From an uncultured Actinomycetes bacterium (lineage in GTDB: Bacteria; Actinomycetota; Thermoleophilia; UBA2241): DNA of 64,000 nt. Location of the stretch: positions 544,001 to 608,000 of the forward strand of contig CAVRZA010000011.1 in the NCBI GenBank assembly GCA_963725665.1, in the 5' to 3' direction. Under the pieces are notes generated by a model. That model saw only the letters and a list, made by a program, of their open reading frames with translations. It searched no databases and had not been told where the DNA came from. Both the position numbers and the translations under genes were made by a program. Position 1 is the first letter of the stretch. Every line of letters begins with the position of its first letter. Below, piece by piece: positions 6,041-38,718 of this stretch.

Positions 6041-6138
6041 GGAGCGGCTTCCGGTCTGGTGACCGGCGCGGTCTTCAAAACCGTCTGCAGGGCGGTGCTC
6101 CCGTCCTGGGTGGGTTCGATTCCCATGTCGCTCCGCCA
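6041..6138 (+). tRNA. selC: tRNA-Sec (UCA anticodon)
   Basis: 8-bp acceptor stem GGAGCGGC/GTCGCTCC, G discriminator plus encoded CCA, anticodon loop CTTCAAA, long variable arm, GGTTCGATTCC T-arm. Confidence 0.97.
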
Positions 6139-21796: not shown

Positions 21797-21926
21797 GGGA
21801 CCTCACAAAGCCTGGCGACAGGCAACGTGCGTTTCGTACACCTTGGCGAGCCTCGACGCAAGCTGTCGGGCGCTTGGGGGCCGGTGACGCTCGAAGAGGA
21901 GAGCCGCTCCTGCGGTCAGCGACCCG

Positions 21927-23091
21927 TCACGAGGCCTCGACCACGTCAGCCGTGGCCTTGCTGGGGTCGGCCACCACCAGGACGTCGATGTAGTCGGCCG
22001 TCGCGCATGATCTTGGCGATGAGCGACGAACCCCGGAGCGACCTCGTCGAAGCGGGATCGCTTCGACTGGCCCATGAGGACGTACGTGGCCCGGTTCTCC
22101 CGGGCGAACTTCAGGATCTCGTCGGCCTCCGAATCACCGTTGAGCTCTACGACCTGGCCGCCGAGATTGCGGGCCAGGTCGTACGCTCGTTGAGCTCGCG
22201 CTGATGGCCGCCGAGCGTCTCGCCCGCCGTGTGCACGTGGACGACCCAGAAGTGCCCCTGCAGACGCTTGGCAAGCCTGTAGCCACGGCGCACCAGCTTC
22301 TTCGCGACCGAACCGCCTTTGATGCAGACGACCACTCGGTCTTCCGTCGCCCAGGGCGCTGTGGTCTCGTGGTCCTCCAAGTAACTCTCGAGGGTCTCGT
22401 CGACCTCCTCGGCGGTCTTGCGCAGCGCCAGCTCGCGCAGCGCCACGAGGTTTCCGCGGCGGAAGAAGTTGCGCAGCGCGCCGGGGATCTTCTCGAGGTC
22501 GTAGACCACGCCGCGGTTGAGGCGGTTGATGAGGGCGTCGGCTGTGAGGTCGACGAGCACCACCTCGTCGGCGCGATCGAGCATGGAGTCGGGTATCGTC
22601 TCGCGCACGCGCACGCCGGTGATCTCGAAGACGGTGTCGTTCAGGCTCTCGAAGTGCTGCACGTTGACAGTGGAGATGACGTCTGATGCCGGCGTCGAGG
22701 ATGTCGTCCACGCTCTGCCAGCGCTTCTCGTGGTCGGTCCCGGGGATGTTGGTGTGCGCCAGTTCGTCGACGAGGACGACACCGGGACGACGGGCGATGA
22801 CCGCGGCGGTGTCGATCTCCTCGAAGACTTACGGCCGCGATAGTCGATTGCCTTGCGGGAAGGATCGGCAGTCCTTCGGCGAGTTCCTCTATCGCCTGCC
22901 GACCGTGCGTCTCGACGAAGCCGACGACGATGTCCTCGCCGCGCGACAGGCGGCGGTGGGCCTCGAGCAGCATGGTGAACGTCTTGCCGACACCGGGGGC
23001 GTAGCCGAGGAAGATCTTGTGGCGCCCGGCTTGCGGAGCGTCTTCAGGGTGAAGAGGTCGCCGGTCTCTGGGCTGAGTCGTCCTCTTCCAT
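21927..23091 (-). CDS. kdpD: KdpD N-terminal sensor (KdpD domain + USP), no kinase, frameshifted
   Basis: KIFLGYAPGVGKTF.ML.EAH, VVGFVETHGR, DELAHTN, TVNVQHFESLND, VRETIPD, FFRRGNL.ALRELALR, then a USP-like domain ending at a stop at 21927. Confidence 0.88.
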
Positions 23092-23094
23092 CAC

Positions 23095-23679
23095 ACTCAC
23101 TGTAGGGCGTCTGTGCGGCGTCGAGGGCGAGATTCAAAGCGGAGCACGTTCACACGAGGTTCGCCAAGAAAGCCGAGCTGGCGTCCGGTGGTGTGTCGTC
23201 GATAAGCGCGAGCACGGCGGAGACGGTCGTGCCGCGGGCTGCGGCGACGCGCGCCGCCTGCGCGCGCGCGTTGGCGATGGTGATGTCGGGATCGAGACCA
23301 CTCGCCGAGGTCGTCACCATGTCGATCGGCACGGCGCCGAATCGCAGCCCGGGGTTGGCGGCGATCTCCTGCTTGACGGAGGTCTGACCCGGTCGGCGAG
23401 CGTCTTGTTGGTCGGCCCCAGGTTCGAGAACGACGAGGCCATCGCGTCGTAGCCCTCCCCGGCGGCGGATAGGCGAGGCTGGAAGTACTTGGCCGCCGTG
23501 AAGTTCTGTCCGATCAGGCTTCGACCCGATCGACTGCTGCCGTTCTTCTTGACGAGGCTGCCGTTGGCCTTGCCGGGAAAGATGACCTGTGCCAGGCCGG
23601 TCATGACCAGCGGGTAGATGATGCCCGCTATCACTGCTGTGACGATCGTCATGCGAATCGAGATCCAGACGTATTTCAC
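23095..23679 (-). CDS. kdpC: Potassium-transporting ATPase subunit KdpC (operon 1, frameshifted; 3' end approximate)
   Basis: GIIYPLVMTGLAQVIFPGKANGSL, LIGQNF..YFQPRLSA, SNLGPTN, PIDMVTTSASGLDPDIT, LNLALD. Confidence 0.9.
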
Positions 23680-23697
23680 GATGCCTCTCCTCGGTCC

Positions 23698-25752
23698 CTA
23701 GGTCGTCAAGTGAGTCGCCACGAGGATCAGGTCGATGATCTTGATGCCGATGAAGGGAGCTACCACTCCCCCGAGGCCGTAGACGAGCAGGTTGTAGCGC
23801 AGCAGCCGGGCGGCCGGCCAGGGCCGGTATTTCACGCCACGCAAGGCGAGTGGGATCAGCATGACGATGATGATCGCGTTGAAGATCACCGCCGAGAGCA
23901 CGGCGCTGTGCGGCGAGTGCAGGCCCATGACGTTGAGGCTCGAGAGCTCGGGGAACGAGACCATGAACATCGCCGGGATGATGGCGAAGTACTTGGCCAC
24001 GTCGTTGGCGATGCTGAACGTTGTCAATGCGCCGCGGGTGATGAGGAGCTGCTTGCCGATGGCCACGATCTCGATGAGCTTTGTCGGGTTGGAGTCGAGG
24101 TCGACCATGTTGCCGGCCTCCTTGGCGGCCGACGTGCCGGTGTTCATGGCGACGCCGACGTCGGCCTGCGCCAGCGCCGGCGCGTCGTTCGTGCCGTCCC
24201 CTGTCATAGCGACCAGCTTCCCCTGCCGCTGCTCGCTACGGATGAGCTCCATCTTGGTCTCGGGCGTCGCCTCGGCAAGGAAGTCGTCAACACCGGCCTC
24301 CTTGGCGATGACCGCCGCCGTGAGCGGGTTGTCCCCCGTGATCATGACGGTGCGGATGCCCATGGCGCGCAGCTCATCGAAGCGCTCGCGCATACCGCCC
24401 TTCACGATGTCCTTCAGGTGGATGACGCCAAGGACCTTCTGGTCGCTCGCGACCGCCAGGGGCGTCCCGCCCTGCAGCGATACCTTCTCGATCGTCTCTT
24501 CGAGCAGGGGTGGGACCTCGCTGCCACGCTGGCGCACCCAGCTGATGATGGCGTCGCCGGCGCCCTTGCGCACAGCGTGCCCGTTCAGGTCGATGCCGCT
24601 CATGCGCGTCTGCGCGCTGAACTCGATGAAGGTGGCCTTCTCTGGGTCGATGTGACGCCCGCGAATGCCGTAGTTCTTGGCCAACACAACGATCGAGCGG
24701 CCCTCGGGCGTCTCGTCGGCGAGGGAGGCGAGCTGCGCGGCGTCGGCGAGCTCCTCCTCTGACACGCCGGACATGGGGATGAACTCGGAGGCCTGCCGGT
24801 TGCCCAGCGTTATCGTCCCCGTCTTGTCGAGCAGCAACGTGTCGACGTCGCCCGCGGCCTCCACCGCGCGCCCCGACATGGCGAGTACGTTGTGGCGCAC
24901 GAGCCGGTCCATGCCTGCGATGCCGATCGCCGAGAGTAGCCCGCCGATGGTCGTCGGGATGAGGCACACAAGCAAGGCGATCAGGACCGTGGCTGACTGG
25001 GCCGCATTGCTGTAGATCGCGAACGGCTGCAACGTCATGATCACGATCACGAAGATGATCGTCAGGCCGGCGAGGAGGATCGTCAGGGCGATCTCGTTGG
25101 GGGTCTTCTGGCGCTGGGCGCCCTCGACGAGGGCGATCATGCGATCGAGGAACGTCTCGCCGGGGTCGGAGGTGATCCTGACCCGAATCTGGTCGGACAG
25201 GACTTTCGTGCCGCCGGTGACGGCGCTGCGGTCGCCGCCGCTCTCGCGGATGACCGGCGCAGATTCGCCCGTGATGGCGGACTCGTCGACCGAGGCGATG
25301 CCCTCGATGATGTCGCCATCGCTGGGGATGATCTCGCCCGCCGAAACGATGACCACGTCGCCGCGGCGCAGCTGCGTCGCCGGCACCTGCTCGAGGCCGG
25401 TCTCGGTGACGAGGTTGGCGAGCGTCTCGGTCTTCATCTTGCGCAGCGCATCGGCTTGGGCCTTGCCGCGACCCTCGGCCATGGCCGTGGCGAAGTTGGC
25501 GAAGAGCACCGTGAACCAGAGCCAGCCGGCGACGGCGCCGACGAACGCCGTATCGCTGCTCGAGCGGATGAGTCCGGCTATGAAATAGTAGGTGGTGATC
25601 GCGCTGCCGACCTCGACCACGAACATGACTGGGTTGCGGGCTACGTCGCGCGGGTCAAGCTTGACGAATGAGCTGCCGATCGCCGGCCAGATGAGGTCGC
25701 GCATGGAGGCGGTCTCCCGCCGCAGGGGCTTGTCGTGGGTGTCGTCAGCCAT
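23698..25752 (-). CDS. kdpB: Potassium-transporting ATPase subunit KdpB (operon 1)
   Basis: [55 protein letters not shown]. Confidence 0.98.
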
Positions 25753-25764
25753 CGCAGTCGCCCG

Positions 25765-27492
25765 TCATCCGAAGAGCTTGCCGGCGTTCATGAGGAACTG
25801 TTCGACGATCGGGCCGAGCGCCAGCGCCGGGAAGAACGTCAGCGCCCCCACGATGAGGATCACGCCCACGAGCAGCACGACGAAGATCACGCCGGTTGTG
25901 GGGAACGTACCGGGCGAGGGCGGCACCGACTTCTTGCCGGCCAGCGAGCTGGCCAGGGCCAAGCACGGGATGATGAAGAAGAAGCGCCCCCACATCATGC
26001 AGAGGCCGCCGATCGTGCTCCAGAACCGCCCGCTGGCCGTGAGACCGGCAAAGGCGCTGCCGTTGTTGCCGGTCTGTGAGAACGTCCCGTAGAGGATCTC
26101 CGAGAGGCCGTGGGGGCCGGGGTTCAGCGCAGCCTCCTTGCCGGCCGGCAGGACGGCCGCCAGCGCGGCGAAGCCCAGGGCGGTCACGCAGTAGTACAGG
26201 ACCGCAAGGACGGCGAGCTTCATCTCGCGGCCCTCGATCTTCTTGCCCAGGTACTCAGGCGTGCGGCCGACCATGAGGCCGGCGATGAACACCGCGAGAA
26301 TGGCGTTGATCAGCAGTCCCATGAGGCCGACGCCGACACCGCCAAACACCACTTCCCCGAGGGCCATGTTCAGCATGGCGAAGCCACCCGCGATCGGCGT
26401 CAGGCTGTCGTGCGCGGTGTTGACCGCACCGCACGACGTGTCTGTGGTCGTGGTGGCCCAGAGGATCGACGCGGAGATCCCGAAACGGACCTCCTTGCCC
26501 TCCATGTTGCCGCCGGACTGGGTCGAGCTGAGCGTCTGATCCGCCCCAAGCTTCGTCAGGATCGGGTTGCCTCGCTGCTCGCTGGCGTACATCACCGCCA
26601 CGCTCATGAGCAGGATGGCCATGGCCGCCGCGAAGAGCGCCCACCCCTGTCGCTGATTGCCCGCGAAGCGCCCGAACGTGTAGGTGAGCGAGACGGGGAT
26701 GGCGAGCAGCATCAGGTCCTCGAACAGGTTGCTGAACGGCGTCGGGTTCTCGTAGGGGTGCGCCGAGTTGGCGTTGTAGGAGCCGCCGCCGTTGGTGCCC
26801 AGCTCCTTGATGATCTCCTGCGAGGCGAACGGTCCCTGCGCTATGGTCTGCGTGATCCCCTCGACCGTGACGGCGCGCGTCGGGGCGTTGAGGTTCTGCA
26901 CGACGCCCTGCGATACGAGCACGAGCGTCCCGACGATCGAGATTGGCAGCAGCACGTAGAGGAAGCTGCGCGTGAGGTCGACCCAGAAGTTGCCCAGCTC
27001 GCGTCTTGAGTGTCGCGTGAGCCCGCGGATGAACGCTACGGCGACCGCGATGCCGACGGCGGCCGACACGAAGTTCTCGCGCGCCAGCGCGAGCATCTGC
27101 GTCAGGTAGCTCACCTGCGTCTCGGGGACGTAGACCTGCCAGTTGGTGTTGGTCGCGAAGCTGACGGCGGTGTTGAAGGCCACCGTGGGGCTCATGTCGG
27201 GGACGTGTGCCGGGTTCAGCGGCAAGTGACCCTGGAGCCGGAGTATCAGGTAGATGAAAAGCAGGACCACGAAGTTGAAGACGAGGAGTGACACCGCGTA
27301 CGCCACCACCCCCATCTCGCGGGTCTCGTCGACGCCACACAGGCGGTAGGTCAGCCTCTCCACGGGACGAACGATGGGGTGGAGGAAGGTGCGTTCGCCG
27401 CGGAAGACGTGCGCCATGAAGAGCCCCAGGGGTTTGGCGATCAGTCCGAGCAGGACGACGTAGACGACGATCTGCAGGATCCCCCAACCCAT
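25765..27492 (-). CDS. kdpA: Potassium-transporting ATPase subunit KdpA (operon 1)
   Basis: Filter motifs TNTNWQ, LGTNGGG, SCGAVN, NNGSAF; GLMVGRTPEYLGKKIE. Confidence 0.98.
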   Translation of the reverse strand: MGWGILQIVVYVVLLGLIAKPLGLFMAHVFRGERTFLHPIVRPVERLTYRLCGVDETREMGVVAYAVSLLVFNFVVLLFIYLILRLQGHLPLNPAHVPDMSPTVAFNTAVSFATNTNWQVYVPETQVSYLTQMLALARENFVSAAVGIAVAVAFIRGLTRHSRRELGNFWVDLTRSFLYVLLPISIVGTLVLVSQGVVQNLNAPTRAVTVEGITQTIAQGPFASQEIIKELGTNGGGSYNANSAHPYENPTPFSNLFEDLMLLAIPVSLTYTFGRFAGNQRQGWALFAAAMAILLMSVAVMYASEQRGNPILTKLGADQTLSSTQSGGNMEGKEVRFGISASILWATTTTDTSCGAVNTAHDSLTPIAGGFAMLNMALGEVVFGGVGVGLMGLLINAILAVFIAGLMVGRTPEYLGKKIEGREMKLAVLAVLYYCVTALGFAALAAVLPAGKEAALNPGPHGLSEILYGTFSQTGNNGSAFAGLTASGRFWSTIGGLCMMWGRFFFIIPCLALASSLAGKKSVPPSPGTFPTTGVIFVVLLVGVILIVGALTFFPALALGPIVEQFLMNAGKLFG

Positions 27493-27507: not shown

Positions 27508-27597
27508 CTAGAACTTCTCTGGTCTCAGAAGGGAGTAGAAGAGGTAGATGATCAGGGCGACTGCAATGATGCCGAGGATGAGGTAGGCGACGTTCAC
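27508..27597 (-). CDS. kdpF: KdpF (29 aa, MNVAYLILGIIAVALIIYLFYSLLRPEKF)
   Basis: Hydrophobic peptide ending in the YL.Y.LLRPEKF signature, immediately upstream of kdpA. Confidence 0.93.
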   Translation of the reverse strand: MNVAYLILGIIAVALIIYLFYSLLRPEKF

Positions 27598-27603
27598 CTT
27601 CGT

Positions 27604-27693
27604 CTACAGGCGAGGAGCCAGCCGAGCGTAGGCGAGAGAGAGGAAGAAGAACGCCATCACCACGGCGACGCAGGCAACATCACCCATCCCCAT
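27604..27693 (-). CDS. Small membrane peptide upstream of kdpF (29 aa, MGMGDVACVAVVMAFFFLSLAYARLAPRL)
   Basis: AAGGAG RBS, single TM, stop 6 nt before the kdpF start. Confidence 0.75.
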   Translation of the reverse strand: MGMGDVACVAVVMAFFFLSLAYARLAPRL

Positions 27694-27859
27694 GCTCCTT
27701 CCGCTGTCGGCCTTGTTCTTCCCGAGCATACAACCAGATAACGACTACACAAACCGTAGCCTGTTCGGCCCGGGCCACCGGGCGTCGGCCCGCGTGCGAC
27801 GCAATTCGGCGGCGCTCCTTTGGGTGCACCGTGATCCGAGCGTAACTGTCCTTGGGCAC

Positions 27860-27903
27860 AGTGATGCCCGCCGTCCTCGGGCGGGAGGACGGCGGGCATC
27901 ACT
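27860..27903. terminator. Perfect 19-bp hairpin
   Basis: AGTGATGCCCGCCGTCCTC-GGGCGG-GAGGACGGCGGGCATCACT, just downstream of the 86-aa ORF. No U-tract. Confidence 0.65.
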
Positions 27904-27917
27904 CTGACTAAGGCGCG

Positions 27918-28178
27918 TCAGTGACGGTAGGAGTGCGCAAACCTCGGAGTGCGCACGTACCTGGCGGGCGCAGGCTTCTCGGCCGGACGCTCGTCGGCCA
28001 AACGCTCCTGGGCCGGGCGCTTCGCCAGGATGAGACGGGCGACCTCACTCTGCTCCCGCCGATAGCGCTTGATGGCGCGCTCCTCGAAGATGAGCCAGAG
28101 AAGGTAGACCAGCGCACCCGCTGCCGCGACGGTCGCTGCGACCGCCACGAACGCAATCAAATCTGCTGCAACTGCCAC
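27918..28178 (-). CDS. Small single-TM protein with basic tail (86 aa)
   Basis: GGGAGGT RBS and GTG start; MAVAADLIAFVAVAATVAAAGALVYLLWLIFEERAIKRYRR...; four-box promoter upstream. Confidence 0.7.
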   Translation of the reverse strand: MAVAADLIAFVAVAATVAAAGALVYLLWLIFEERAIKRYRREQSEVARLILAKRPAQERLADERPAEKPAPARYVRTPRFAHSYRH

Positions 28179-28217: not shown

Positions 28218-28266
28218 GTTAAGAAGCCGTAAAGACCACGCCGGTCCATGTGAATGTTTCCTAAAG
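28218..28266 (-). promoter_or_regulatory. Four-box direct-repeat operator (putative KdpE site) for the 86-aa gene
   Basis: CTTTAG-5-ATTCAC-15-CTTTAC-5-CTTAAC, then 11 nt ending GGG, then TACGCT. Confidence 0.75.
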
Positions 28267-28385
28267 GCCAAGCGAGCGCCCCCGAGGCCGAGAGGTTGGC
28301 GGCAGCGGTCGCCGCGGTCTGCCCGCCGGCTCGCGAGTGCCGATTGGGACCTGCAGTCGTCTGCCACTCCGACGCCGCAGGCTTC

Positions 28386-28466
28386 CTACTCGTGCGTGGT
28401 CAGCTTGTATCCGGCAAGCAGGAAAATGGCCATCAGAGCCAGCCACACAAGTGCTTCCAGAGCCAC
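28386..28466 (-). CDS. Small membrane peptide (26 aa, MALEALVWLALMAIFLLAGYKLTTHE)
   Basis: Strong RBS TAAGGAGGT, GTG start, one TM; four-box promoter upstream. Confidence 0.7.
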   Translation of the reverse strand: MALEALVWLALMAIFLLAGYKLTTHE

Positions 28467-28508
28467 CGTCCACCTCCTTACATGCACAAGCAGGGTACCC
28501 AGGGTCCT

Positions 28509-28557
28509 CTTAAGGCCTCGTGAAGCGAGGGCGTAGAGGCGTGAAGTTTGCGTGAAC
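28509..28557 (-). promoter_or_regulatory. Four-box operator (putative KdpE site) for the 26-aa peptide
   Basis: GTTCAC-5-CTTCAC-15-CTTCAC-5-CTTAAG, then 11 nt ending GGG, then TACCCT. Confidence 0.72.
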
Positions 28558-28760
28558 ACCCTGAGCGTCGTTCGCGACCACAGGCGATCGAAGATCAGGG
28601 GGTCGAGTCACACACGGTCCGCCCAACCGGAGAGGCACGAGCGCGATCGAGGAAGAGCGCCACGCTCGGTTCCGTCTGCCCCGCGCTGGGCTTGCCGACG
28701 GCCTTTAGATCTGCCGACCCTCGTTCCTCTCTGCGCCTCTGTCGGCGCTGCGGGGACCGG

Positions 28761-28809
28761 CTTTATCTAATCTTTATGCACTTGTGACTACGTTTTACTA
28801 ATGGTTAAC
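28761..28809 (+). promoter_or_regulatory. Four-box operator (putative KdpE site) for kdp operon 2
   Basis: CTTTAT-5-CTTTAT-15-TTTTAC-5-GTTAAC, then 11 nt ending GGG. Resembles the E. coli KdpE TTTATA-N5-TTTACA repeat. Confidence 0.8.
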
Positions 28810-28909
28810 GTCGTTTCGGGAACATGTCGCGCAGTCGGTTCAGTTGATGTCCAGTGCCGGGGGCTGCCGTCGCCGGCCTTGAACGAGTCAGCCATGGAGG
28901 TCGGAGCTG

Positions 28910-28993
28910 ATGCCCGATTTCGTTGCAGTACTTATCGCCTTGGCGTGCTTCGCGGTGCTGTTCGTGCTCCTCTACGCCCTGGAGCGCGTGTGA
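28910..28993 (+). CDS. Small membrane peptide upstream of kdpF2 (27 aa, MPDFVAVLIALACFAVLFVLLYALERV)
   Basis: RBS GGAGG; TGATG overlap with the kdpF2 start; one TM. Confidence 0.75.
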   Translation: MPDFVAVLIALACFAVLFVLLYALERV

Positions 28994-29082
28994 TGGCCGC
29001 CGCAGACGTCTTCGGATTGGCGATCGCGGTGGCGATCGCCGTGTATCTCCTCTACGCACTCTTCAGAGGGGAGCGATTCTGA
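28993..29082 (+). CDS. kdpF: KdpF (29 aa, operon 2)
   Basis: MAAADVFGLAIAVAIAVYLLYALFRGERF; TGATG overlap with kdpA2. Confidence 0.9.
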   Translation: MAAADVFGLAIAVAIAVYLLYALFRGERF

Positions 29083-30773
29083 TGACCCCCGAAGGTATCG
29101 GCCAGATCGCCCTCTACGTCGCCCTCCTGATCGCGTTCGCCTATCCACTAGGCCGTTACTACATGGCCTGGGTCTACACGCACGGGCGCGACGATCCTGT
29201 GGAGCGGGGCATGTTCCGGCTGTTCGGGCGTGGCAGCGGCAGCGAGCAGGACTGGAAGAGCTATGCCAAGACTGTGCTGATCTTCAGTCTCGTCTTCTCC
29301 GGCGTGCTCTATGCGATCATGCGTCTCCAGGCCCGCCTGTTCCTCAACCCGGACCACCTGGCCGCGGTTCCCTGGCACATCTCGCTCAACACAACCGCTA
29401 GCTTCATCACGAACACCAATTGGCAGTACTACGCCGGCGAATCGACGATGTCGTACCTGAGCCAGATGGCCGGCCTGGCGGTGCAGAACTTCGTCTCCGC
29501 CGCCGTGGGCATGGCGGTGCTGGCGGCCGTCGTGCGCGGCTTCTCGCGCCGCTCGCGGCACGAATTGGGCAACTTCTGGCGCGATCTCTATCGCTCCCTG
29601 GTGTACATCCTGCTGCCACTTTCGATCGTCGTCGCGGTGATCCTGATCTCGCAGGGCGTGCCCCAGACGTTCCACGCGCACGCCACGGCGACCACGCTGC
29701 AGGGCGCCCATCAGACGATCGCCCGTGGCCCCGTCGCCTCGCAGATCGCCATCAAGCAACTGGGCACCAACGGCGGCGGCTACTACAACTCGAACTCCGC
29801 TGTTCCTCTCGAGAATCCGACAGGGCTCTCGAACTTCGCCGAGATGCTCGCGATCCTGCTGATCCCCGCCGCCCAGGTGTTCATGTTCGGGCGCATGGTG
29901 CGAGCCCGCCGCCACGCCTGGATGGTTTTCGCGGCGATGTTCGTCATGTTCGTGATCGGTATCGGCGTCAACCTGGCGGCCGAGCAGCACGGTTCGCAGG
30001 TGCTGCGCGGCGCAGGCGTGAACATCGCCGCGGGCCAGGGGCAGAGCGGCGGCAACATGGCCGACAAGGAGGTCCGCTTTGGCATCGCCGCCACAACGAA
30101 CTGGACGGTCGCTACGAGCGACGCCTCGAATGGCTCGGTAAACGGCGGTTTCGATGCCAACACCGCCATTGGCGGCGCCGTGCCCCTCGTCAACCTCTTC
30201 GTGGGTGAGGTCATCTTCGGCGGCGTCGGCTCCGGACTGTACGGCATGTTCTTCTACATCGTGATCGCCGTGTTCATCGCCGGCCTGATGGTAGGTCGCA
30301 CGCCGGAGTGGCTGGGCAAGAAGATCGAGGCGCGTGAGATCAAATACGCCGCTATCGGCGCGCTCTTCGTGCCTACCATGGTGCTCGTCATGACTGCGAT
30401 CGCCGTGGCCGCGCCGGCGGGGCTCGCCTCGATCTTCAACCCGGGCGCCCACGGCTTCACGGAGGCGCTCTACGCGTACGACTCGCAGGCGAACAACAAC
30501 GGCAGCGCCTTCGCTGGCTACGGGGCGACCACCTTCTCCGCCACCTTTGGCACGATCGCGCTCTACCTCGGCCGCTTCGCGCCGCTGCTGGCGGCGCTGG
30601 CCCTCGGGGGCTCGCTCGCGGGGAAGAAGGTAGCACCCGAGTCCGCGGGGACCTTCCGCACCGACGGCCCTACCTTCGTCGTCCTGCTCGTCGGCGTCAT
30701 TGCGCTCACCGCCGGTCTGATGATCCTGCCCGCACTGAGCCTCGGGCCAATCGTGGAGTCACTGATGCACTGA
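29082..30773 (+). CDS. kdpA: KdpA (operon 2)
   Basis: TNTNWQ, LGTNGGG, SNGSVN, NNNGSAF, GLMVGRTPEWLGKKIE. Confidence 0.98.
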   Translation: MTPEGIGQIALYVALLIAFAYPLGRYYMAWVYTHGRDDPVERGMFRLFGRGSGSEQDWKSYAKTVLIFSLVFSGVLYAIMRLQARLFLNPDHLAAVPWHISLNTTASFITNTNWQYYAGESTMSYLSQMAGLAVQNFVSAAVGMAVLAAVVRGFSRRSRHELGNFWRDLYRSLVYILLPLSIVVAVILISQGVPQTFHAHATATTLQGAHQTIARGPVASQIAIKQLGTNGGGYYNSNSAVPLENPTGLSNFAEMLAILLIPAAQVFMFGRMVRARRHAWMVFAAMFVMFVIGIGVNLAAEQHGSQVLRGAGVNIAAGQGQSGGNMADKEVRFGIAATTNWTVATSDASNGSVNGGFDANTAIGGAVPLVNLFVGEVIFGGVGSGLYGMFFYIVIAVFIAGLMVGRTPEWLGKKIEAREIKYAAIGALFVPTMVLVMTAIAVAAPAGLASIFNPGAHGFTEALYAYDSQANNNGSAFAGYGATTFSATFGTIALYLGRFAPLLAALALGGSLAGKKVAPESAGTFRTDGPTFVVLLVGVIALTAGLMILPALSLGPIVESLMH

Positions 30774-31360
30774 TGCGTACGCTCCTTCGCACACTCATCG
30801 CCGTCGTCGCGCTCACCGCGGTCTTCGGCCTCGCCTACCCTGCGATCATGGTCGGTTTCGCATCGCTCTCGTTCTCGGGCAAGTCACAAGGCAGCCTGAT
30901 CTACCACAACGGCAGCGTGGTGGGTTCGCGCCTGGCGGCGCAGGAATTCACCGACCCCCGCTACTTTCATGAGCGGCCCTCGGCTACGTCGCCCGCGTAC
31001 AACGCCGGTGGGACGACCTTCGCCAACCTGGGGCCCACAAACCCCGATCTCACAAAAGCGGTGCGCGAGCAGGCGCAGGCGATCCTCAAGCTCGAGGGTC
31101 CCTACAACCCGGGTCTGACGATCGGCGATATCCCCGTCGACGCCGTCACGACCTCCGGCTCCGGCATCGACCCTCATGTCTCACCTGCTTACGCGGAGCT
31201 GCAGGCTCCTCGCATCGCCGCTGTGCGGCAACTGCCTCTCGCCACGGTCGAGAGGCTGGTCAAAGACAACACTGACGGTCGCAGCCTAGGCTTCCTCGGT
31301 GAGCCTGGTGTGAACGTCCTCGAGCTCAACCTTGCGCTCGACAGGCTAGGAGGCAAGTAG
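30773..31360 (+). CDS. kdpC: KdpC (operon 2)
   Basis: [51 protein letters not shown]. Confidence 0.97.
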
Positions 31361-31362
31361 GC

Positions 31363-33423
31363 ATGGCAAGGCGCTCAAGCGTCTTCTCGCGCGAGCTCGC
31401 GCTCGCAGCGGTGCGCGATTCCTTCCCCAAGCTCAACCCACGCAACCAGATCAGAAACCCGGTCATGTTCGTGGTCGAGATCGGCAGCGTCATCACAACC
31501 GCGATCTTCTTCATCGACCTCGTCCGCGGTCAGACCGGCCAGCTCTGGTTCGTCGGAACTATCTCGGTCTGGCTCTGGCTCACGGTGCTGTTCGCGAACT
31601 TCGCGGAGGCGATCGCCGAGGGCCGCGGAAAGGCACAGGCAAATGCCCTGAGGGCGACCAGGACGACCACGATCGCCACCCGGCGGCGCGAGAGCGGTGC
31701 CCTCGAGCAGGTCCCCGCGCCGGAGCTCTCGCGTGGGGACGTCGTCATCGTTACGGCGGGCGAGATCATTCCCGCCGACGGCGAAGTGATCGAAGGCATC
31801 GGCTCGGTCGACGAGTCGGCGATCACTGGCGAGTCGGCCCCCGTGATCCGCGAAGCCGGCGGCGATCGCTCTGCCGTCACTGGCGGCACCAGGCTCCTCT
31901 CAGACCGACTCGTCGTCGAAGTCACCCAGGAGGCGGGCAAGTCGTTCCTCGAGAGGATGATCGCACTGGTCGAGGGCGCGGAGCGGCGAAAGACGCCGAA
32001 CGAGATCGCGCTGAACATCCTGCTCGCTGGCCTGACGATCACCTTTCTCGTCGCGGTCGTCACCTTGCGGCCCTACGGACTCTATGCGCACACCAGCCTT
32101 TCGCAGACGGTGCTGATCGCACTGCTCGTCGCCCTGATCCCGACCACGATCGGTGCCCTGCTCTCAGCGATCGGCATCGCCGGTATGGACCGGCTCGTGC
32201 AGCGCAACGTGCTAGCCATGTCAGGGCGCGCAGTCGAGGCGTCGGGCGACGTTGACGTGTTGCTCCTCGACAAGACCGGCACGATCACGCTGGGCAATCG
32301 ACAGGCGGTCAACTTCATCCCCGCTCCCGGTGTGGACGAGCGGGAGTTCGCCGAGGTCGCGCAGCTGGCGTCGTTGGCCGATGAAACCCCCGAGGGTCGT
32401 TCCATCGTCGTTCTCGCAAAGGAACGCTTCAACCTGCGTGAGCGCACCCTGGGGGAAGAGGAAGTCGAGTTCGTGCCGTTCACTGCCGTCACACGTATGA
32501 GCGGCGTCAACCTCGAGGGCAGCATGATCCGCAAAGGCGCCGCCGACGCAGTAAGAGGCTTCATCGAGGAACGCGGCGGCACCGCCATCCCCGCCGAAAT
32601 CCACGCGACCGTACAGAGGGTCGCCGAGGAGGGCGGGACGCCCCTCGTCGTCGCCAAGGACGGCTCCGCACTCGGTGTCATCCAGCTGAAGGACGTCGTC
32701 AAGGGTGAGCTGCGTGAGCGCTTCGACGGCATGCGGAAGATGGGCATCCGCACCGTGATGATAACGGGCGACAATCGAGTCACCGCAGCTGTGATCGCCA
32801 AGGAGGCCGGTGTCGACGACTTCCTTGCGGAGGCAACGCCGGAGGCAAAACTCGCACTCATCCGCGAGGAGCAGGCGCGCGGCCGTATGGTCGCCATGAC
32901 CGGTGACGGCACTAACGATGCCCCGGCGCTGGCCCAGGCCGACGTGGGCGTGGCCATGAACGCCGGGACCTCCGCCGCCAAGGAAGCCGGCAACATGGTC
33001 GACCTCGACAACAACCCGACGAAGCTGATCGAGATAGTAGAGGTCGGCAAGCAGCTCCTGATCACCCGCGGCGCCTTGACCACGTTCTCGATAGCCAACG
33101 ACGTGGCCAAGTACTTCGCCATCCTGCCGGCGATGTTCGCCTTCACGTATGCGACGCATCCCGGCGAGCGCGGGCCGCTCAACTCGCTCAATATCATGCA
33201 CCTGGGAGATCCGAAGAGCGCGATCATCTCCGCGATCATCTTCAACGCCCTGATCATCGTGGCGCTCATCCCCCTCGCCCTCAAAGGCGTCCGCTACCGC
33301 GCCATCGGCGCCACTGCGCTGCTGCGGCGCAACCTCCTGATCTACGGGCTCGGCGGCATCGTCTTGCCGTTCGTGGGGATCAAGCTGATCGACCTCGTCG
33401 TCCACAACGTGCTTGGAGCTTAG
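31363..33423 (+). CDS. kdpB: KdpB (operon 2)
   Basis: [43 protein letters not shown]. Confidence 0.98.
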
Positions 33424-33530
33424 TGCAGCGGTAGCGCGGCCCGTCGAGTGTGTGGCAGGGCAATGGCCGGTCCTCCGTGCGGCAGAGCGAGCAGAGTCCC
33501 AGCATCTCTTTTGATGCTGTCGTGGAGCGC

Positions 33531-33579
33531 ATTAAGCGCATCTTTATGCCGGCAGAACTGCCCTTTACGGGTGATTAAC
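33531..33579 (+). promoter_or_regulatory. Four-box operator (putative KdpE site) for the DUF294 gene
   Basis: ATTAAG-5-CTTTAT-15-CTTTAC-5-ATTAAC, then 11 nt ending GGG, then TAGCTT. Confidence 0.78.
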
Positions 33580-33689
33580 GCGGTGCCGGGTAGCTTCTGC
33601 GGGCGGGCTGCGTCCTTGGCGGCGCAACCCGCTGTCTCGTGCGCCGTTTTCGCGGGGCGCTGCACCGGACGTCAAGCAGGAGGCGGGCT

Positions 33690-35525
33690 GTGGCGGTCAC
33701 AGCTCTCAAGAAGAGCCCAACGAATGAGCGGGTCGGATTCCTCTCGCGCCTCGAACTGTTCAAGGGACTCGACCAGGACGAGCTCGAGCGGATAGCAGCG
33801 GCGATCTCGGTGCAGATCGCCGCTGCCGGAGAGGCGGTCCAAGTGGAGAGCGGCATCCCCGGCGACCACCTGTTCGTTGTGCTTGACGGCACCCTCGAGC
33901 TCATCCACAAGGGCGCCGTCGTGGCCATCCTCTCCAAAGGGGAGGTGTTCGGACACTCTACCCTGCTCACCGGACTGCCACCCGAGTTCACGACACGTGC
34001 GGGAACCCCTTCCACGCTCTGGCGCATCCCGAAAGACATCGCCGTCGACCTCCTGAGTCGGCCTGCAGGGGTGAGGTTCGTCGCCGACACGCTGCGCGAG
34101 CAGCTGATCCAAGCGGCGCGATCCACGAACGGGGCTGCCGATCTCGCTGCGCGGCCGGTGGTGTCGCTGGTGCGCGGAGCACCCGTGTTCTGCGAGGCGG
34201 ACGCGACGATCCGTGAGGCGGCGACGCTCATGAGCGCCAGCAGAGCGAGTGCGCTCTTGGTGCGGACGGTCGGGGGTCTTGGCATCGTCACTGACTCCGA
34301 CCTGCGCGAGAAGGTCGTGGCCGGCGACGTTCCCCGAGACGCCGCGGTCACTGCCGTCATGACGACCCCGGTGGAGAGCGTCGCTGCCGACCGGCTGGGT
34401 CCCGAGGCCGCGGTCCAGATGATGGCCGCCGGCGTCAACCATCTCGTTGTCGAGGACAAGGCCGGCAGGCTCGTCGGCGTCCTGTCGGCCGCGGACCTCG
34501 TTTCCCTCGACGCGCGCAGCCCCTTCGCCCTGCGGCGCCGGATTCAGGAGGCACGGAACGAAGACGATCTTGTGGCGGCATCCAGGGATCTACCTGCCCT
34601 GTTCGCCGAGCTGCTCGACGCCCGGGTCGATGCCCCTGCTGTGGCTCGGATCCTGACCGTGCTCTGCGATGCCATGACAGTGCGTCTGCTGGAGCTCTTC
34701 TTCGACCGGCATGGCCAGCCACCAGTCGGCTACGCCTGGCTTTTGTTCGGCAGCAGCGCCCGGAACGAGCTCACTCTGGCCTCCGACCAGGACAACGGCA
34801 TCGCCTACGAGGACGGCGACGACCCCCGCGTCGAGGACTACTTCCGCGAGCTGGCCGAGGACGTCAACGACGGGCTGGTCCGCAGCGGCTTCGCCGCCGA
34901 CCCCCACGGCACGGTGGCGCAGAACTGGCAGTGGCGCCTGCCCCTCTCGCTGTGGCGCTCCGTCTTCGCCCGCTCGCTCGAGGACAGGGACGTCAATCGC
35001 CTCGCCCGTGCCAGCGTCGCCTTCGACTTCCGGCAGCTGGCCGGGGACTTGGCGGTGGCCGGGCCACTGACCGAGATCATGCGCGAGGCGCCCGGCCACC
35101 GCCGCTTCATGAGCGGTCTCGCCCAGCTCGCGACGCGCAACCCCCTGCCGTTGTCTGGCCTGCGCCAGCGGGTGGCGGGTCGGCTCGACGTGAAACGGGA
35201 GTGCCTGCGGCCGATTCAGAACTTCGCCCGCTACCAGGCCCTGCTGGCGGGCATCAGCGCGCACTCCACCCTAGATCGACTCGCGGGGGTGCGCGAGGCG
35301 GGCCTGCTGGACCGTGAGAGCGAGCAGTCGCTGAGCGACGCCTTCACGATCCTGCTGGGCCTGCAGCTGCGACATCACGGCGACGCCCTGGGCGAGGGGC
35401 GCCCCCTCGACAACGAGCTCTACGTGGAGAGCCTTCGCCCGCTCACACGGGCCAGCCTCCAGGAGGCGCTGCGCGTGGTGGCGGCCACACAGCGGCGCTT
35501 CCCGCGGCTGCCGGCCCTGGGCTGA
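33690..35525 (+). CDS. cNMP-binding + CBS pair + DUF294 nucleotidyltransferase-like protein
   Basis: cNMP domain (ELFKGLD..GEVFG), CBS pair (GIVTDSDLR, VMTTPV), NTase motif FGSSARNELTLASDQDNGI, DUF294_C-like LDVK..LRPI...STLDRL. RBS AGGAGG. Confidence 0.88.
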   Translation: MAVTALKKSPTNERVGFLSRLELFKGLDQDELERIAAAISVQIAAAGEAVQVESGIPGDHLFVVLDGTLELIHKGAVVAILSKGEVFGHSTLLTGLPPEFTTRAGTPSTLWRIPKDIAVDLLSRPAGVRFVADTLREQLIQAARSTNGAADLAARPVVSLVRGAPVFCEADATIREAATLMSASRASALLVRTVGGLGIVTDSDLREKVVAGDVPRDAAVTAVMTTPVESVAADRLGPEAAVQMMAAGVNHLVVEDKAGRLVGVLSAADLVSLDARSPFALRRRIQEARNEDDLVAASRDLPALFAELLDARVDAPAVARILTVLCDAMTVRLLELFFDRHGQPPVGYAWLLFGSSARNELTLASDQDNGIAYEDGDDPRVEDYFRELAEDVNDGLVRSGFAADPHGTVAQNWQWRLPLSLWRSVFARSLEDRDVNRLARASVAFDFRQLAGDLAVAGPLTEIMREAPGHRRFMSGLAQLATRNPLPLSGLRQRVAGRLDVKRECLRPIQNFARYQALLAGISAHSTLDRLAGVREAGLLDRESEQSLSDAFTILLGLQLRHHGDALGEGRPLDNELYVESLRPLTRASLQEALRVVAATQRRFPRLPALG

Positions 35526-35719
35526 GTCGTGCCGCAACAGATGGTCATGGCAGAGGCGCTGTTGTCCCACCTCTGGGGCGACTCTCAGCGCTCGCGGGTC
35601 CTATTCCACACTCCCTTTGCGGCGCTCTGGGCGCTCAGACCGCGTCATGATCGCGCCGACCGGGCTCACAAGACGATACTGTGAGGATGCGTCAGAGCGA
35701 CTTCGTCGATGGGGTGTGG

Positions 35720-35763
35720 GCGGACGGGCCCGCCGAGCCGTGAGGTTCGGCGGGCCCGTCCGC
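35720..35763. terminator. 20-bp GC-rich hairpin with GTGA tetraloop
   Basis: GCGGACGGGCCCGCCGAGCC-GTGA-GGTTCGGCGGGCCCGTCCGC, between the DUF294 gene and kdpE. Confidence 0.55.
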
Positions 35764-35948
35764 GAACAGCTGGCGGCACGTGTTGTGTGAGGAACATCGC
35801 CAGCGGGGTGCTACCATATACAGGGGGGAATAGAGGACGGTCTCTGTCAGCACGGGTCCGTTGTGCCGGGAGGCGCGGCCAACCGATGCACGCACCACCC
35901 TACGGCTGCGCGTGCGGGATGCCGGTTTAGGCCGGCGCGGAGGGGGCA

Positions 35949-36662
35949 GTGAGCGGAATCCCCGAACGTCCGACTCGCATCCTTGTCGTCGACGACGAGG
36001 AGCAGATACGGCGCGCCGTTGGCTCGATTCTCCGTGCCAGAGGCTATGCACTTGACCTTGCGGCGACTGCCCACGAGGCGCTGCTCACCGCCATCGACCA
36101 TCCGCCCGATCTCGTCGTGCTCGACCTCGCGCTGCCCGATCGCAGCGGCATCGAGGTCTGTCGTGAGTTGCGCTCGTGGACGAGTGTCCCAATCCTCGTT
36201 CTGTCGGTGCGCTCTGCTGAGCACGACAAGATCCAGGCCCTGGACGAGGGGGCCGACGACTACCTGACGAAGCCCTTCTCGGCGGGAGAACTGTTGGCGC
36301 GCGTGCGCGCCCTCCTGCGACGGGCGGCGTCACGGACGATACCGCCGCCCGTGGTGGAGGTGGGCGATCTCGTGGTCGACATCGCGCGGCGGCGCGTGAC
36401 TCTCGCGGGCGACGATGTATCCCTCACGCCGACCGAGTTCGACATCCTCGCCTATCTGGCCCGCAACGCCGATCTCGTCGTGACGCAGCGTCAGATTCTC
36501 GAGGAGGTATGGGGACCTGAGTGGGCCGAAGACGCGCAGACGTTGCGCGTGCACGTCAGCCACCTACGCAGGAAGATCGAGCCGACGCCAAGCGGCCGTC
36601 GCTACATCATCACGGAGCCGCGCATAGGCTTTAGGTTCTCGACCGCTGAGGACTCTACTTGA
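35949..36662 (+). CDS. kdpE: KdpE OmpR-family response regulator
   Basis: ILVVDDEEQIRR, DLVVLDLALPDRSG, DKIQALDEGADDYLTKPF, LTPTEF, LRVHVSHLRRKIE..P. Confidence 0.9.
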   Translation: MSGIPERPTRILVVDDEEQIRRAVGSILRARGYALDLAATAHEALLTAIDHPPDLVVLDLALPDRSGIEVCRELRSWTSVPILVLSVRSAEHDKIQALDEGADDYLTKPFSAGELLARVRALLRRAASRTIPPPVVEVGDLVVDIARRRVTLAGDDVSLTPTEFDILAYLARNADLVVTQRQILEEVWGPEWAEDAQTLRVHVSHLRRKIEPTPSGRRYIITEPRIGFRFSTAEDST

Positions 36663-38241
36663 CCCGTGACCGTATCGGCAGCGAGACGGTGAAGCGGGCC
36701 CCTGTGGCCTGTGCCGGCTCCACCCAGACCTCGCCGCCGTGCGCTTTGACGATCTCACGAGTGATAGCGAGGCCGAGGCCGGTACCGGAGGGGGCTTTCG
36801 TCCCGGCGCGCTGCCCCCGGTAGAATTTCTCGAAGATCCGCTCCCGCTCCTCCTCGCCGACGCCGGGCCCCTCGTCCTCGACCCACATCTCCACTGAGCC
36901 CACACCAGCTCTCGCGCCCACTCGCACGGGCGACGACTCGCCCCCGTAGATGATGGCATTCTCGATGAGGTTCTGGAGGACGCGCGCCCATTGCACGAAG
37001 TCGACCTCGATGAGAGGCAGGTCATCGGGCAGCGAGACCTCCACGCGAGCGCGCTGGTGGGCCGGAAGGGCGTCCGTGCTGGCGGAGACGATGTCGGAGA
37101 GCTCGTAGAGGTCCAGTGACGGTTCCCACGAGCGGGCCTCGAGCCGTGAGAGATCGAGCAGTGAGTTGATGCTGTTGTTCAGACGGGCGATGTCGTCGAC
37201 GATGCCGCGCAGTTCGTCGTGGACGAGGCGCTCGTCCCAGGCGACATCGCTCTCGAGGAGGTTGCTGACAGTTGCAGTGAGGGCCGCCAGCGGCGTCTTG
37301 AGCTCGTGCGACACAGAAGAGAGCAGACTCGATTTGAGTCGATCCGCCTCCCGCAGCGCCTCGGCGCGGGTCGCCTTGGCCTGAAGGTTCTGGCGCTCGA
37401 GAAAGACGCCGATCAGGTTGGCAAGCGATGCCATGAGCCGCGCCTCGGCAGCGTCATACGGGTGCCCGTTGGGCCGGCCGCGCACGGCGAGCACACCCGT
37501 GACGCCCGCGCCCGAGTGGAGCGGGATGAAGGTGCCATTGATGCCTACGAAGGCCTCAGCTGCCGGTTCCCGTAAGAAGGAGGCTCCTTGGAGTTGCTCC
37601 TGTCGATGGCTCGCTGGAAAGCCGAGCGTGCAGTCGTGGCTGTAGGCCCACTGAGCTCCGTCCACAGTGTCTCGGTCGGGCGGCCCGGAAGGTAGCGAGG
37701 CGCAGAAGGACAGCAACCCGCTATCGCTGCCTATGAAGAGCGCCGCCGAGGATGCGCCCACGACATCGATGATCTCTTCGAGGACGGTGTAGGCCATCGT
37801 CTCGGTGGACGTTTCCGAGACCAAGCGGGCGCTCAACCTGTTGAGCACTGCAGTCTCATGCTCTCGTGCGTGGGCTCGCTCCTCGCGGTTCCGCATGCGA
37901 CCTGTTTGCACCCCCATGGCCAGACCCACGGCGAGGAAGGCCAGCAGCGACAGGTAATCCTGGGGATCCCTCACCACGAGGGTGTGGTAAGGAGGGAGAA
38001 AGAAGAAGTCCCAGGCGAGGAAGGCGAGGATTGCGGCGACCACCGCCGGCCCCGTGCCGCTCGCCCCCGCGACCAGGACGACTATGAGAAGGTAGAGGAG
38101 CGCCCACTGCCCCTTGGCGAAGTGGTCGCGGCCAGGGAGAAAGATGGCCGTCGACACTGCGATTGCCAGGACGGCGAGCACGTAGCCGTGACGGGCGAGT
38201 CGCCTCTGCAGGTCTTTGACCGTGACCCTCATGCCAAACAC
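36655..38241 (-). CDS. kdpD: KdpD C-terminal half: 4-TM (DUF4118) + GAF + histidine kinase
   Basis: AFLAWDFFFLPPYHTL, LLSSVSHELKTPLA, NLIENA, DEGPG, FEKFYRG, GTGLGLAI. Confidence 0.9.
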   Translation of the reverse strand: MFGMRVTVKDLQRRLARHGYVLAVLAIAVSTAIFLPGRDHFAKGQWALLYLLIVVLVAGASGTGPAVVAAILAFLAWDFFFLPPYHTLVVRDPQDYLSLLAFLAVGLAMGVQTGRMRNREERAHAREHETAVLNRLSARLVSETSTETMAYTVLEEIIDVVGASSAALFIGSDSGLLSFCASLPSGPPDRDTVDGAQWAYSHDCTLGFPASHRQEQLQGASFLREPAAEAFVGINGTFIPLHSGAGVTGVLAVRGRPNGHPYDAAEARLMASLANLIGVFLERQNLQAKATRAEALREADRLKSSLLSSVSHELKTPLAALTATVSNLLESDVAWDERLVHDELRGIVDDIARLNNSINSLLDLSRLEARSWEPSLDLYELSDIVSASTDALPAHQRARVEVSLPDDLPLIEVDFVQWARVLQNLIENAIIYGGESSPVRVGARAGVGSVEMWVEDEGPGVGEEERERIFEKFYRGQRAGTKAPSGTGLGLAITREIVKAHGGEVWVEPAQATGARFTVSLPIRSRVK

Positions 38242-38382
38242 ACTCTATCGCTGACGGAGGCCCCGGTGGACCTGGCAGACAGTGCCGACGGGGAGCCAGC
38301 ACACGCGGCTGCAGCGCGTGTGTGCTTGGATTTCAGGAGCGAAGCTCAGAAAGGAAGCCCTTGAAGGGCGAGCTTCCCGGGC

Positions 38383-38610
38383 TCAGCGCGCGCGATAGGC
38401 CGTCACGGCGGTGCGCCGCTCGGGCGAGCGGCTGAGCTTGCCGCGGACGACTTCGGCTGGCTTGCGTCCGAGCCGGTGAACGCTGACCCTCGCGCGCTGA
38501 CGAAGAGGTCGGACAGTGGACTTCTCGAGGAGGACCATGGCCGCATACGTGAGTCCCAGCACCCACGCTGTCGCGGCCGCAAACAGAAGCACGTCGATGA
38601 TAAGCTTCAC
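38383..38610 (-). CDS. Small single-TM protein with basic tail (75 aa)
   Basis: MKLIIDVLLFAAATAWVLGLTYAAMVLLEKSTVRPLRQR...; four-box promoter upstream; resembles the 86-aa protein. Confidence 0.65.
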   Translation of the reverse strand: MKLIIDVLLFAAATAWVLGLTYAAMVLLEKSTVRPLRQRARVSVHRLGRKPAEVVRGKLSRSPERRTAVTAYRAR

Positions 38611-38669
38611 GTCCAACCTTCAGTCCCCAAGCCAAGTAGGCGATTCGTAATTAGGCTACCCGTGGGTGT

Positions 38670-38718
38670 GTTAAGGACGTGTGAAGCGAACGCACCAGAA
38701 CATAAAGGTTCTGTTAAG
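38670..38718 (-). promoter_or_regulatory. Four-box operator (putative KdpE site) for the 75-aa gene / kinase
   Basis: CTTAAC-5-CTTTAT-15-CTTCAC-5-CTTAAC, then 11 nt ending GGG, then TAGCCT. Confidence 0.78.

Follow-up and report, generated by a model that had tools for sequence, protein, structure and literature searches.

We found five copies of a rigid operator made of four hexameric boxes within 10.5 kb of a 64,000-nucleotide (nt) stretch of DNA, referred to below as the window, which comes from an uncultured Thermoleophilia bacterium (lineage UBA2241; assembly GCA_963725665.1, contig CAVRZA010000011.1, forward-strand positions 544,001 to 608,000) and carries two kdp potassium-pump operons. 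The five sites, S1 to S5, are probably promoters that lack a -35 element and depend on the response regulator KdpE, being activated by two phosphorylated KdpE dimers. Read toward the downstream gene, each site has the layout hexamer-5-hexamer-15-hexamer-5-hexamer followed by 11 nt that end in GGG. S1 (28761-28826, plus strand), the promoter of kdp operon 2, reads CTTTAT-5-CTTTAT-15-TTTTAC-5-GTTAAC-gtcgtttcGGG-AACATG. S2 (33531-33596, plus strand), which precedes a gene for a cNMP-binding/CBS/DUF294 protein, reads ATTAAG-5-CTTTAT-15-CTTTAC-5-ATTAAC-..GGG-TAGCTT. The other three sites lie on the minus strand: S3 (38718-38653; CTTAAC-5-CTTTAT-15-CTTCAC-5-CTTAAC-..GGG-TAGCCT) before a gene of 75 codons and a KdpD-type kinase gene, S4 (28557-28492; GTTCAC-5-CTTCAC-15-CTTCAC-5-CTTAAG-..GGG-TACCCT) before the gene of a peptide of 26 amino acids (aa), and S5 (28266-28201; CTTTAG-5-ATTCAC-15-CTTTAC-5-CTTAAC-..GGG-TACGCT) before an 86-aa gene and kdp operon 1. 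Re-reading of the sequence confirmed the layout, coordinates and strands given for all five sites in the initial annotation, and with them the TAnnnT that follows GGG at 4/5 sites and the AACATG that stands there in S1. Both box pairs of all five sites are 6-bp direct repeats with an 11-bp period. TT is present in 20/20 boxes, and TTTAC or TTTAT in 8/20, the rest having TTCAC, TTAAC or TTAAG.

The motif is confined to these sites. The pattern TTHA-N7-TTHA-N17-TTHA-N7-TTHA gave five matches on both strands of the 3,732,813-base genome, all of them S1 to S5. With two mismatches allowed, the window gave five matches compared to 0.00 expected from 100 shuffles, so the motif is not as frequent in random DNA. 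The weight-matrix scan proposed in the initial annotation covered 7,464,066 positions and returned no further hit of at least 15 bits (99.9999th percentile, -1.8 bits), with a matrix built from 10 sites including S1 to S5, whose scores are circular for those five. Genome scans with the proximal half only or with one pair only returned no further promoter-like site and just some isolated pairs. The extended regulon claimed in the initial annotation holds in that non-kdp genes stand behind some of the sites; in this genome the predicted regulon is exactly these five promoters within 10.5 kb, with no further site elsewhere.

The spacing of the boxes is equally strict. When the middle gap was varied from 6 to 30, the five genome matches appeared only at the observed gap, and 259 kb of loci from related genomes gave 32 distinct matches at the observed gap and 1 at one base less. 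Variation of the half-site spacing from 4 to 11 gave matches essentially only at 7 between the TTNA cores, and variation of the distance to the -10 element from 8 to 17 in the relatives gave 18 distinct matches at the observed distance compared to 0-1 at others. Rigid spacing is a real property and not merely a product of the chosen pattern. Neither the five sites nor 38 sites of relatives contain a conserved degenerate fifth box in the 15-nt gap. Because the inter-box spacers are unrelated among S1 to S5, the sites are not recent duplicates; the boxes and their geometry are conserved, not a copied segment.

The relatives are 89 genomes of the same order, all of a single family, so that counts among them overstate independence, and some of their loci were picked by the motif itself. 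Across these genomes, the pattern with at most one mismatch gave 61 matches in 32 genomes compared to 1 match for a reversed control pattern, and the layout thus recurs beyond the genome in hand. Two features that the search left unconstrained recur as well. TAnnnT, mostly TAGCCT, stands at the exact position in 31/38 sites from 31 relatives, and the base before TT is C in 37, 35 and 37 of the 38 for boxes 1, 2 and 4, respectively. In the usual arrangement, the site lies just after the kdpE orthologue and ≈50 nt before a gene for a membrane protein of 70-95 aa, which is followed by kdpFABC; S5 belongs to this conserved type. By script criteria, the gene behind the main site encodes 70-140 aa with one N-terminal membrane helix in 26/31 loci, and inspection by eye added two further loci with such a gene (L097 and L005). 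Downstream of the small membrane-protein gene are genes for KdpF-like peptides and kdpA, or in G074 and G079 a KdpD-type kinase gene instead. Other sites in the relatives precede a P-type ATPase gene (genus g2, G060), the gene of a 41-42 aa peptide (G043, G081) or a DUF294 gene (G081), and relative G019 has at least six four-box sites in its own kdp supercluster.

Four-box sites extend to a second family of the class, where CTTGAC-5-CTTGAG-15-CTTGAG-5-CTTGAG-11-TAGCGT stands between kdpD-kdpE and kdpA. This family has five loci with the four-box between kdpE and kdpA and one beside a KdpD-N gene. Across the class, the proximal-half pattern gave 95 matches compared to 21 control matches by our own count; those in family f4 have no kdp gene within 1.5 kb. 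From sequence comparison, the four-box element is thus real, conserved and almost certainly regulatory. The DUF294 gene, proposed as a target in the initial annotation, does lie behind S2 here. As a conserved target it was rejected: 30 of ≈100 DUF294 matches were scanned, and a sense-oriented four-box was present in only 1/29 of the relatives' loci (G081). We therefore regard the gene as a putative lineage-specific target. The genome has three DUF294-family paralogues (in the window, at C4:346331 and at C3:255228), and relatives have up to five matches to the window protein at the cut-off used.

The position of the boxes relative to the -10 element bears on how these promoters would work. Box 4 ends 11 nt before the -10 position in 5/5 sites. 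At the usual 17-nt spacing, a -35 hexamer would comprise the final base of box 3 and the 5-nt spacer after it, where there is nothing like TTGACA, and no sigma-70-like -35/-10 promoter was found between 27400 and 39000 of the window. With a start ≈7 nt after the -10 element, the boxes would begin at about -72, -61, -40 and -29. The initial annotation had placed the last box at the -35 position; instead, box 4 would occupy about -29 to -24, and -35 falls between boxes 3 and 4. Its proximal dimer site stands in modified form, in that the whole pair, rather than the last box alone, covers the -35 region. Our comparisons with published systems, here and below, draw on the portions of the cited papers that were available to us. 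In PhoB-dependent promoters, 10 bp separate the upstream boxes from the -10 element (PMC1906773), and the proximal pair of boxes, ending 11 bp before TAnnnT and covering the place of the -35 element, would have a PhoB-like geometry. Lack of a -35 element implies that RNA polymerase would start only with KdpE bound.

S1 departs from this scheme. It lacks TAnnnT, and GGGAACAYG is common to S1 (28810-28826) and the orthologous promoter of G019 (L012, ≈6800), that is, to two genera. The context of the -10 element also suggests another reading of the proximal part, in which it is mainly a SigB/SigF-type promoter with the -10 element GGGTA, the repeats are partly sigma elements, and KdpE is an accessory at most. 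GGG precedes the -10 position in 5/5 sites and GGGTA is present in 4/5 (S1 has GGGAA), and S1 keeps GGG without TAnnnT in both genera. GGG is unusual before TAnnnT in the TTGAC-type promoter matches of this genome (3/86, compared to 9/86 for TGC, the commonest context), and the genome encodes a SigB/F/G-type sigma factor (296 bits, against a curated cut-off of 234). Moreover, a SigF-type promoter, GTTC-N13-GGGCA, has been proposed for kdpF of Mycobacterium smegmatis (PMC5401905). Nevertheless, we consider this reading very unlikely. The five sites lack a GTTT-like -35 element 15-17 nt before GGG; the distance from GGG is 8 nt for box 4 and 19 nt for box 3, and the stretch between is not conserved. 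GGG is lost in many variant sites and in the second family, where GCG, GAG or GCC precedes TAGCGT or TAGCCT, and an array of four phased direct repeats is no hallmark of sigma-factor recognition. A -10 element of the form TAG..T also fits the usual primary -10 element of actinobacteria. The choice of sigma factor at the -10 element is compatible with activation by KdpE either way.

Repression is a second explanation to which we assign little probability. KdpE or another protein would bind the boxes and occlude the promoter until the signal arrives, and boxes 3 and 4 do overlap the core promoter at about -40 to -24, a region in which protein binding is often repressive. However, all five sites lack a -35 element that could be occluded, the boxes are as far from the -10 element as those of the activator PhoB, and KdpE is an activator in Escherichia coli and M. 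smegmatis (PMC3264566, PMC5401905).

Several lines of evidence point to KdpE as the protein that reads the boxes. Among solved structures, the best relatives of the regulator encoded in the window are E. coli KdpE (2.6e-65; structures 4KNY and 4KFC are listed), compared to 3.6e-50 for the next family. In alignment to E. coli KdpE, the regulator keeps the phospho-acceptor Asp motif and residues R193, R200 and T215; these three residues have DNA-contact roles in KdpE, and R193 is reported to be conserved only among KdpE orthologues (PMC3264566). It is the best match of the genome to the KdpE model (235 bits, compared to 169 for the next of 22 matches), and KdpE is its top NCBIfam model. In 25/31 motif-bearing relatives, by hand comparison of the lists of motif and kdpE matches, a kdpE orthologue (72-84% identical) lies within 1 kb of the site, which is usually 8-100 bp past the end of the gene. 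Among the six exceptions, three have the gene at 1.4-2.3 kb, one has it on a different contig, one has no KdpE match, and one has an adjacent site with more mismatches. Conversely, 19/20 kdpE flanks without a match at up to one mismatch contain a variant four-box of the same layout (16.5-53 bits), with boxes such as CTTGAT, CTTGAC and CTTGCG. The motif is present in 1/25 relatives without a KdpE match and in 30/63 with one, which are kin and not independent. S1 and S5 are upstream of the two kdp operons, and in relatives kdpE and kdpA flank the site. In silico, the assignment of KdpE as binder is thus well supported, both by this linkage and by the resemblance of the boxes to KdpE sites known from experiment. 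The OmpR-family operator read by KdpE that was proposed in the initial annotation gains from the model match, R193, the E. coli and M. smegmatis half-sites and the 25/31 linkage, and each computational test at our disposal speaks for it; its placing of box 4 at -35 and its regulon extent do not stand.

Other observations weigh against this assignment or against the model as a whole, in addition to the circularity of the matrix and the motif-based choice of some loci. At 235.6 bits, the regulator is below the cut-off of the KdpE equivalog model NF007820 (325 bits); this model is narrow, as implied by the passing of only 1/14 model genomes in a control set. The recognition helix is Q-T-L-R-V-H-V-S compared to H-Y-L-R-I-Y-M-G in E. 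coli, described as differing at three positions. In this genome, kdpE is at least 2 kb from every site. Conservation of AACATG in S1 means that at least one promoter misfits the simple model. Finally, isolated pairs of similar half-sites (e.g., CTTTAC-5-CTTAAC) lie upstream of two other OmpR-family regulator genes, at C1:329283-329310 and C2:396260, and are probably those regulators' own sites, implying that a half-site pair alone is not specific for KdpE.

We examined these points with respect to an explanation in which another OmpR-family regulator binds the boxes and the linkage to kdp reflects a different signal. The genome encodes about nine full-length OmpR-type regulators, two of them with the half-site pairs just described, and the candidate KdpE falls short of the equivalog cut-off. 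By contrast, the four-box adjoins the orthologue of this regulator in most relatives and in the second family, its half-sites recur in a KdpE site that was mapped by experiment in another actinobacterium, and none of the other regulator genes of this genome has a four-box nearby. A different regulator is therefore, in our view, highly improbable. That the sites are functionless chance matches or copies of one duplicated segment, for which only their clustering in 10.5 kb speaks, is refuted by the shuffle expectation, by conserved boxes amid unrelated spacers, and by conservation of the layout in 32 genomes of the order and in the second family.

Returning to activation by KdpE, we infer binding, activation, start sites and signal from a motif that the sequences show to be unique, conserved and linked to kdpE. 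Each site would hold two phosphorylated KdpE (KdpE~P) dimers on head-to-tail sites, one on boxes 1 and 2 and one on boxes 3 and 4, each with an 11-bp period. The pair centres are 32 bp apart, which would put both dimers on the same face of the helix. When K+ is limiting, KdpE would receive its phosphate from a split KdpD, whose sensor is encoded in operon 1 and whose kinase is encoded behind S3. KdpE~P would in turn activate both Kdp pumps, the DUF294 gene, three genes for small membrane proteins or peptides and, in a positive feedback, the kinase operon. No four-box is present upstream of kdpE itself, which probably uses its own extended -10 promoter; TGcTACCAT at 35808-35818 (plus strand), ≈130 nt before kdpE, resembles such an element. 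Likewise, no four-box directly precedes kdpF-kdpA1 in this genome, unlike in G019, which implies that operon 1 would be read through the hairpin behind the 86-aa gene or from an unseen promoter.

At least 12 relatives encode a second KdpE clade (clade B; 52-57% identical) together with a canonical kdp operon. The clade-B recognition helix, H-Y-L-R-V-Y-V-G, is nearer to that of E. coli than is Q-T-L-R-V-H-V-S of the clade described above. A four-box lies upstream of kdpA in 8/8 clade-B loci (e.g., L208-L215; G075:C3:218985-219033) and reads CGTCAA-5-CGTAGA-15-CGTACA-5-CGTAAG. The clade-B pattern gave 27 matches in the relatives' genomes compared to 19 for the control; 13 sites in 12 genomes share the consensus, ≈180-310 bp upstream of KdpA. 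Like the operator described above, the clade-B element has the 6-5-6-15-6-5-6 layout without any change, lies next to kdp genes and the gene of its own KdpE, and has GGG before the -10 element. It differs in that its half-sites are inverted and its boxes end 28 nt, rather than 11 nt, before a GGGTACnnT -10 element. The clade-B ATG lies 6 nt past the -10 element, implying that the kdpF mRNA is probably leaderless. On the other strand, the clade-B boxes read yyTACG, near the TTnACG seen here with a one-base frame shift, which implies that the module is inverted. The idea that the two clades read clearly different half-sites was softened by this likeness. The present genome has neither a clade-B KdpE nor a clade-B module (0 pattern matches). 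The common internal layout at another orientation and distance suggests that it reflects how two KdpE dimers sit together. A broader generalization appears doubtful to us: that Thermoleophilia KdpE would act as an obligate dimer pair on a fixed 49-bp module, in both orientations and 11 or 28 nt from the -10 element, that cells would run two parallel K+ circuits, and that the first product of the circuit, ≈80-aa single-pass membrane proteins forming a new family, would be accessories of the split KdpD or of the pump.

The genes behind the sites form a potassium-transport supercluster that spans ≈18-39 kb of the window (68.6% G+C). Public sequencing runs listed as containing this stretch comprised four of DNA, with shares of at most 0.30, and none of RNA. 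On the minus strand, the order is S4, the 26-aa peptide gene, S5, the 86-aa gene, a hairpin, two small peptide genes including kdpF, and kdpA1-kdpB1-kdpC1, followed by genes for a KdpD-like non-kinase sensor (NF038185), a P-type ATPase and TrkA-like proteins. The gene of the hydrophobic 26-aa peptide (28386-28466) has a GTG start with AAGGAGG 7 nt upstream. The 86-aa single-pass membrane protein (27918-28178), encoded before kdp operon 1, matched no Pfam or NCBIfam family, and an ESM Atlas look-up gave a best score of 0.86 with hypothetical proteins only. The two small peptide genes before kdpA1 (27508-27729) encode a KdpF-like peptide (open reading frame [ORF] 27604-27729) and KdpF (27508-27597). 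Next are kdpA1 (25765-27492; PF03814 at 6.1e-236) and kdpB1 (23698-25752; E1-E2 ATPase), together 23698-27492. Public loci contained one close relative of KdpA1 (87% identical, Thermoleophilia) and 79 distant KdpA loci from other phyla. The kdpC1 gene and the KdpD-like sensor gene (22000-23679) are each in two frames, with frameshifts near 23386 and 22857. Throughout 18200-23700 of the minus strand, kdpC1 and the genes of the KdpD-like sensor, P-type ATPase and TrkA-like protein are each split over 2-3 frames compared to intact G019 orthologues. An MMPL gene on contig C2 and a P-type ATPase gene on contig C6 of this genome read the same way, which points to assembly indel errors or gene decay.

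On the plus strand, the order is S1, two small peptide genes including kdpF, kdpA2, kdpC2, kdpB2, S2, the cNMP-binding/CBS/DUF294 gene and kdpE. Kdp operon 2 (28910-33423) comprises the gene of a 27-aa peptide, kdpF2 (28993-29082), kdpA2 (29082-30773, boundaries by our own reading), kdpC2 (30773-31360) and kdpB2 (31363-33423). Its order of kdpA-kdpC-kdpB, unlike the usual A-B-C, is shared by G019. Both kdpA genes are preceded by two small hydrophobic peptide genes, for KdpF and a KdpF-like peptide of 27-28 aa, as in relatives. The cNMP-binding, CBS and DUF294 nucleotidyltransferase-like gene (33639-35525) likely starts at GTG 33691 after AGGAGG. The gene of KdpE, the OmpR-family response regulator proposed to bind the boxes (PF00072 and PF00486), is at 35949-36662. 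Convergent with kdpE on the minus strand is the unit of S3, the gene of a 75-aa single-pass membrane protein (38383-38610) and the gene of a KdpD-type kinase (36655-38241; DUF4118-GAF-HisKA-HATPase). The kinase covers positions 395-883 of the KdpD model, and this match to the C-terminal half only implies that KdpD is split into a sensor protein and a kinase. Complex prediction for the 75-aa protein with the membrane domain of the kinase gave a score of 0.00, which counts neither for nor against an interaction. Behind the 86-aa gene (27850-27913; 29-nt arms) and the DUF294 gene (35715-35768) are long G+C-rich hairpins that lack a clear T tract, and a terminator-like hairpin (38343-38383) lies between the 75-aa and kinase genes; these hairpins could limit read-through into the downstream genes. 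An Rfam scan of the whole window returned only a selenocysteine tRNA gene (6041-6134, plus strand; RF01852, 74.2 bits); the kdp region gave neither a riboswitch nor a leader RNA.

The KdpD/KdpE pair ranks with the most widespread two-component systems, yet by 2017 experiments had established KdpE sites in just four species (PMC5401905). Literature outside subscription journals, figures and bioRxiv supplements yielded no description of a four-box KdpE operator, or of Thermoleophilia in connection with potassium and kdp. The element described here offers a sharply defined operator model for a class rich in uncultured members, with two phased dimers, one of which would replace the -35 element. 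Its predicted K+ regulon is not limited to the pump: it also takes in the kinase operon, small membrane proteins that are conserved, the cNMP/CBS/DUF294 protein here and, in relatives, a P-type ATPase. The paralogous KdpE systems with the same operator layout would be a natural pair for studying the avoidance of cross-talk.

The closest counterparts are the known KdpE operators. E. coli KdpE binds TTTATA-N5-TTTACA, with the half-site TTTA(T/C)A, in which the first two T residues are invariant across genera, and its footprint covers -72 to -50 (PMC3264566). As in the E. coli kdpFABC operator, the pairs described here are 6-bp AT-rich direct repeats 5 bp apart with an invariant TT, and the distal pair, at a predicted -72 to -56, would lie inside the E. 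coli footprint. Whereas a single dimer site far upstream of the promoter is described for E. coli, the sites here have another pair 21 bp further downstream, at fixed spacing and overlapping the -35 region. Differences further include non-kdp targets, a split KdpD and the three changes in the recognition helix. In M. smegmatis, electrophoretic mobility shift assays (EMSA) and DNase I footprinting defined a 22-bp KdpE site that resembled no other KdpE site in the view of its authors (PMC5401905). On the other strand, this site reads CTTGAT-ggttt-CTTTAC, for which the matrix of boxes 1 and 2 gives 19.4 bits. A site called unlike other KdpE sites thus has the same half-site pair and period as those described here, and the proposed -10 element, GGGCA, is also preceded by GGG. 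It differs in that a single pair is reported and a SigF promoter is proposed in the available text (PMC5401905). The kdp promoter of Propionibacterium acnes, the one promoter for which a single repeat pair is described in that species, provides an actinobacterial precedent for a KdpE site that overlaps -35 (PMC3848588).

PhoB pho boxes and PhoP PHO boxes are alike in that 11-bp tandem repeats ≈10 bp before the -10 element replace the -35 element, and multi-repeat operators exist among them (PMC1906773, PMC4415409). They are unlike in regulator, signal and half-sites (CTGTCAT, GTTCACC), and the Pho operators in these sources consist of contiguous units, not of two pairs split by a fixed 15-nt gap as here. 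The basic picture of OmpR-family regulation is unchanged by the four-box operator.

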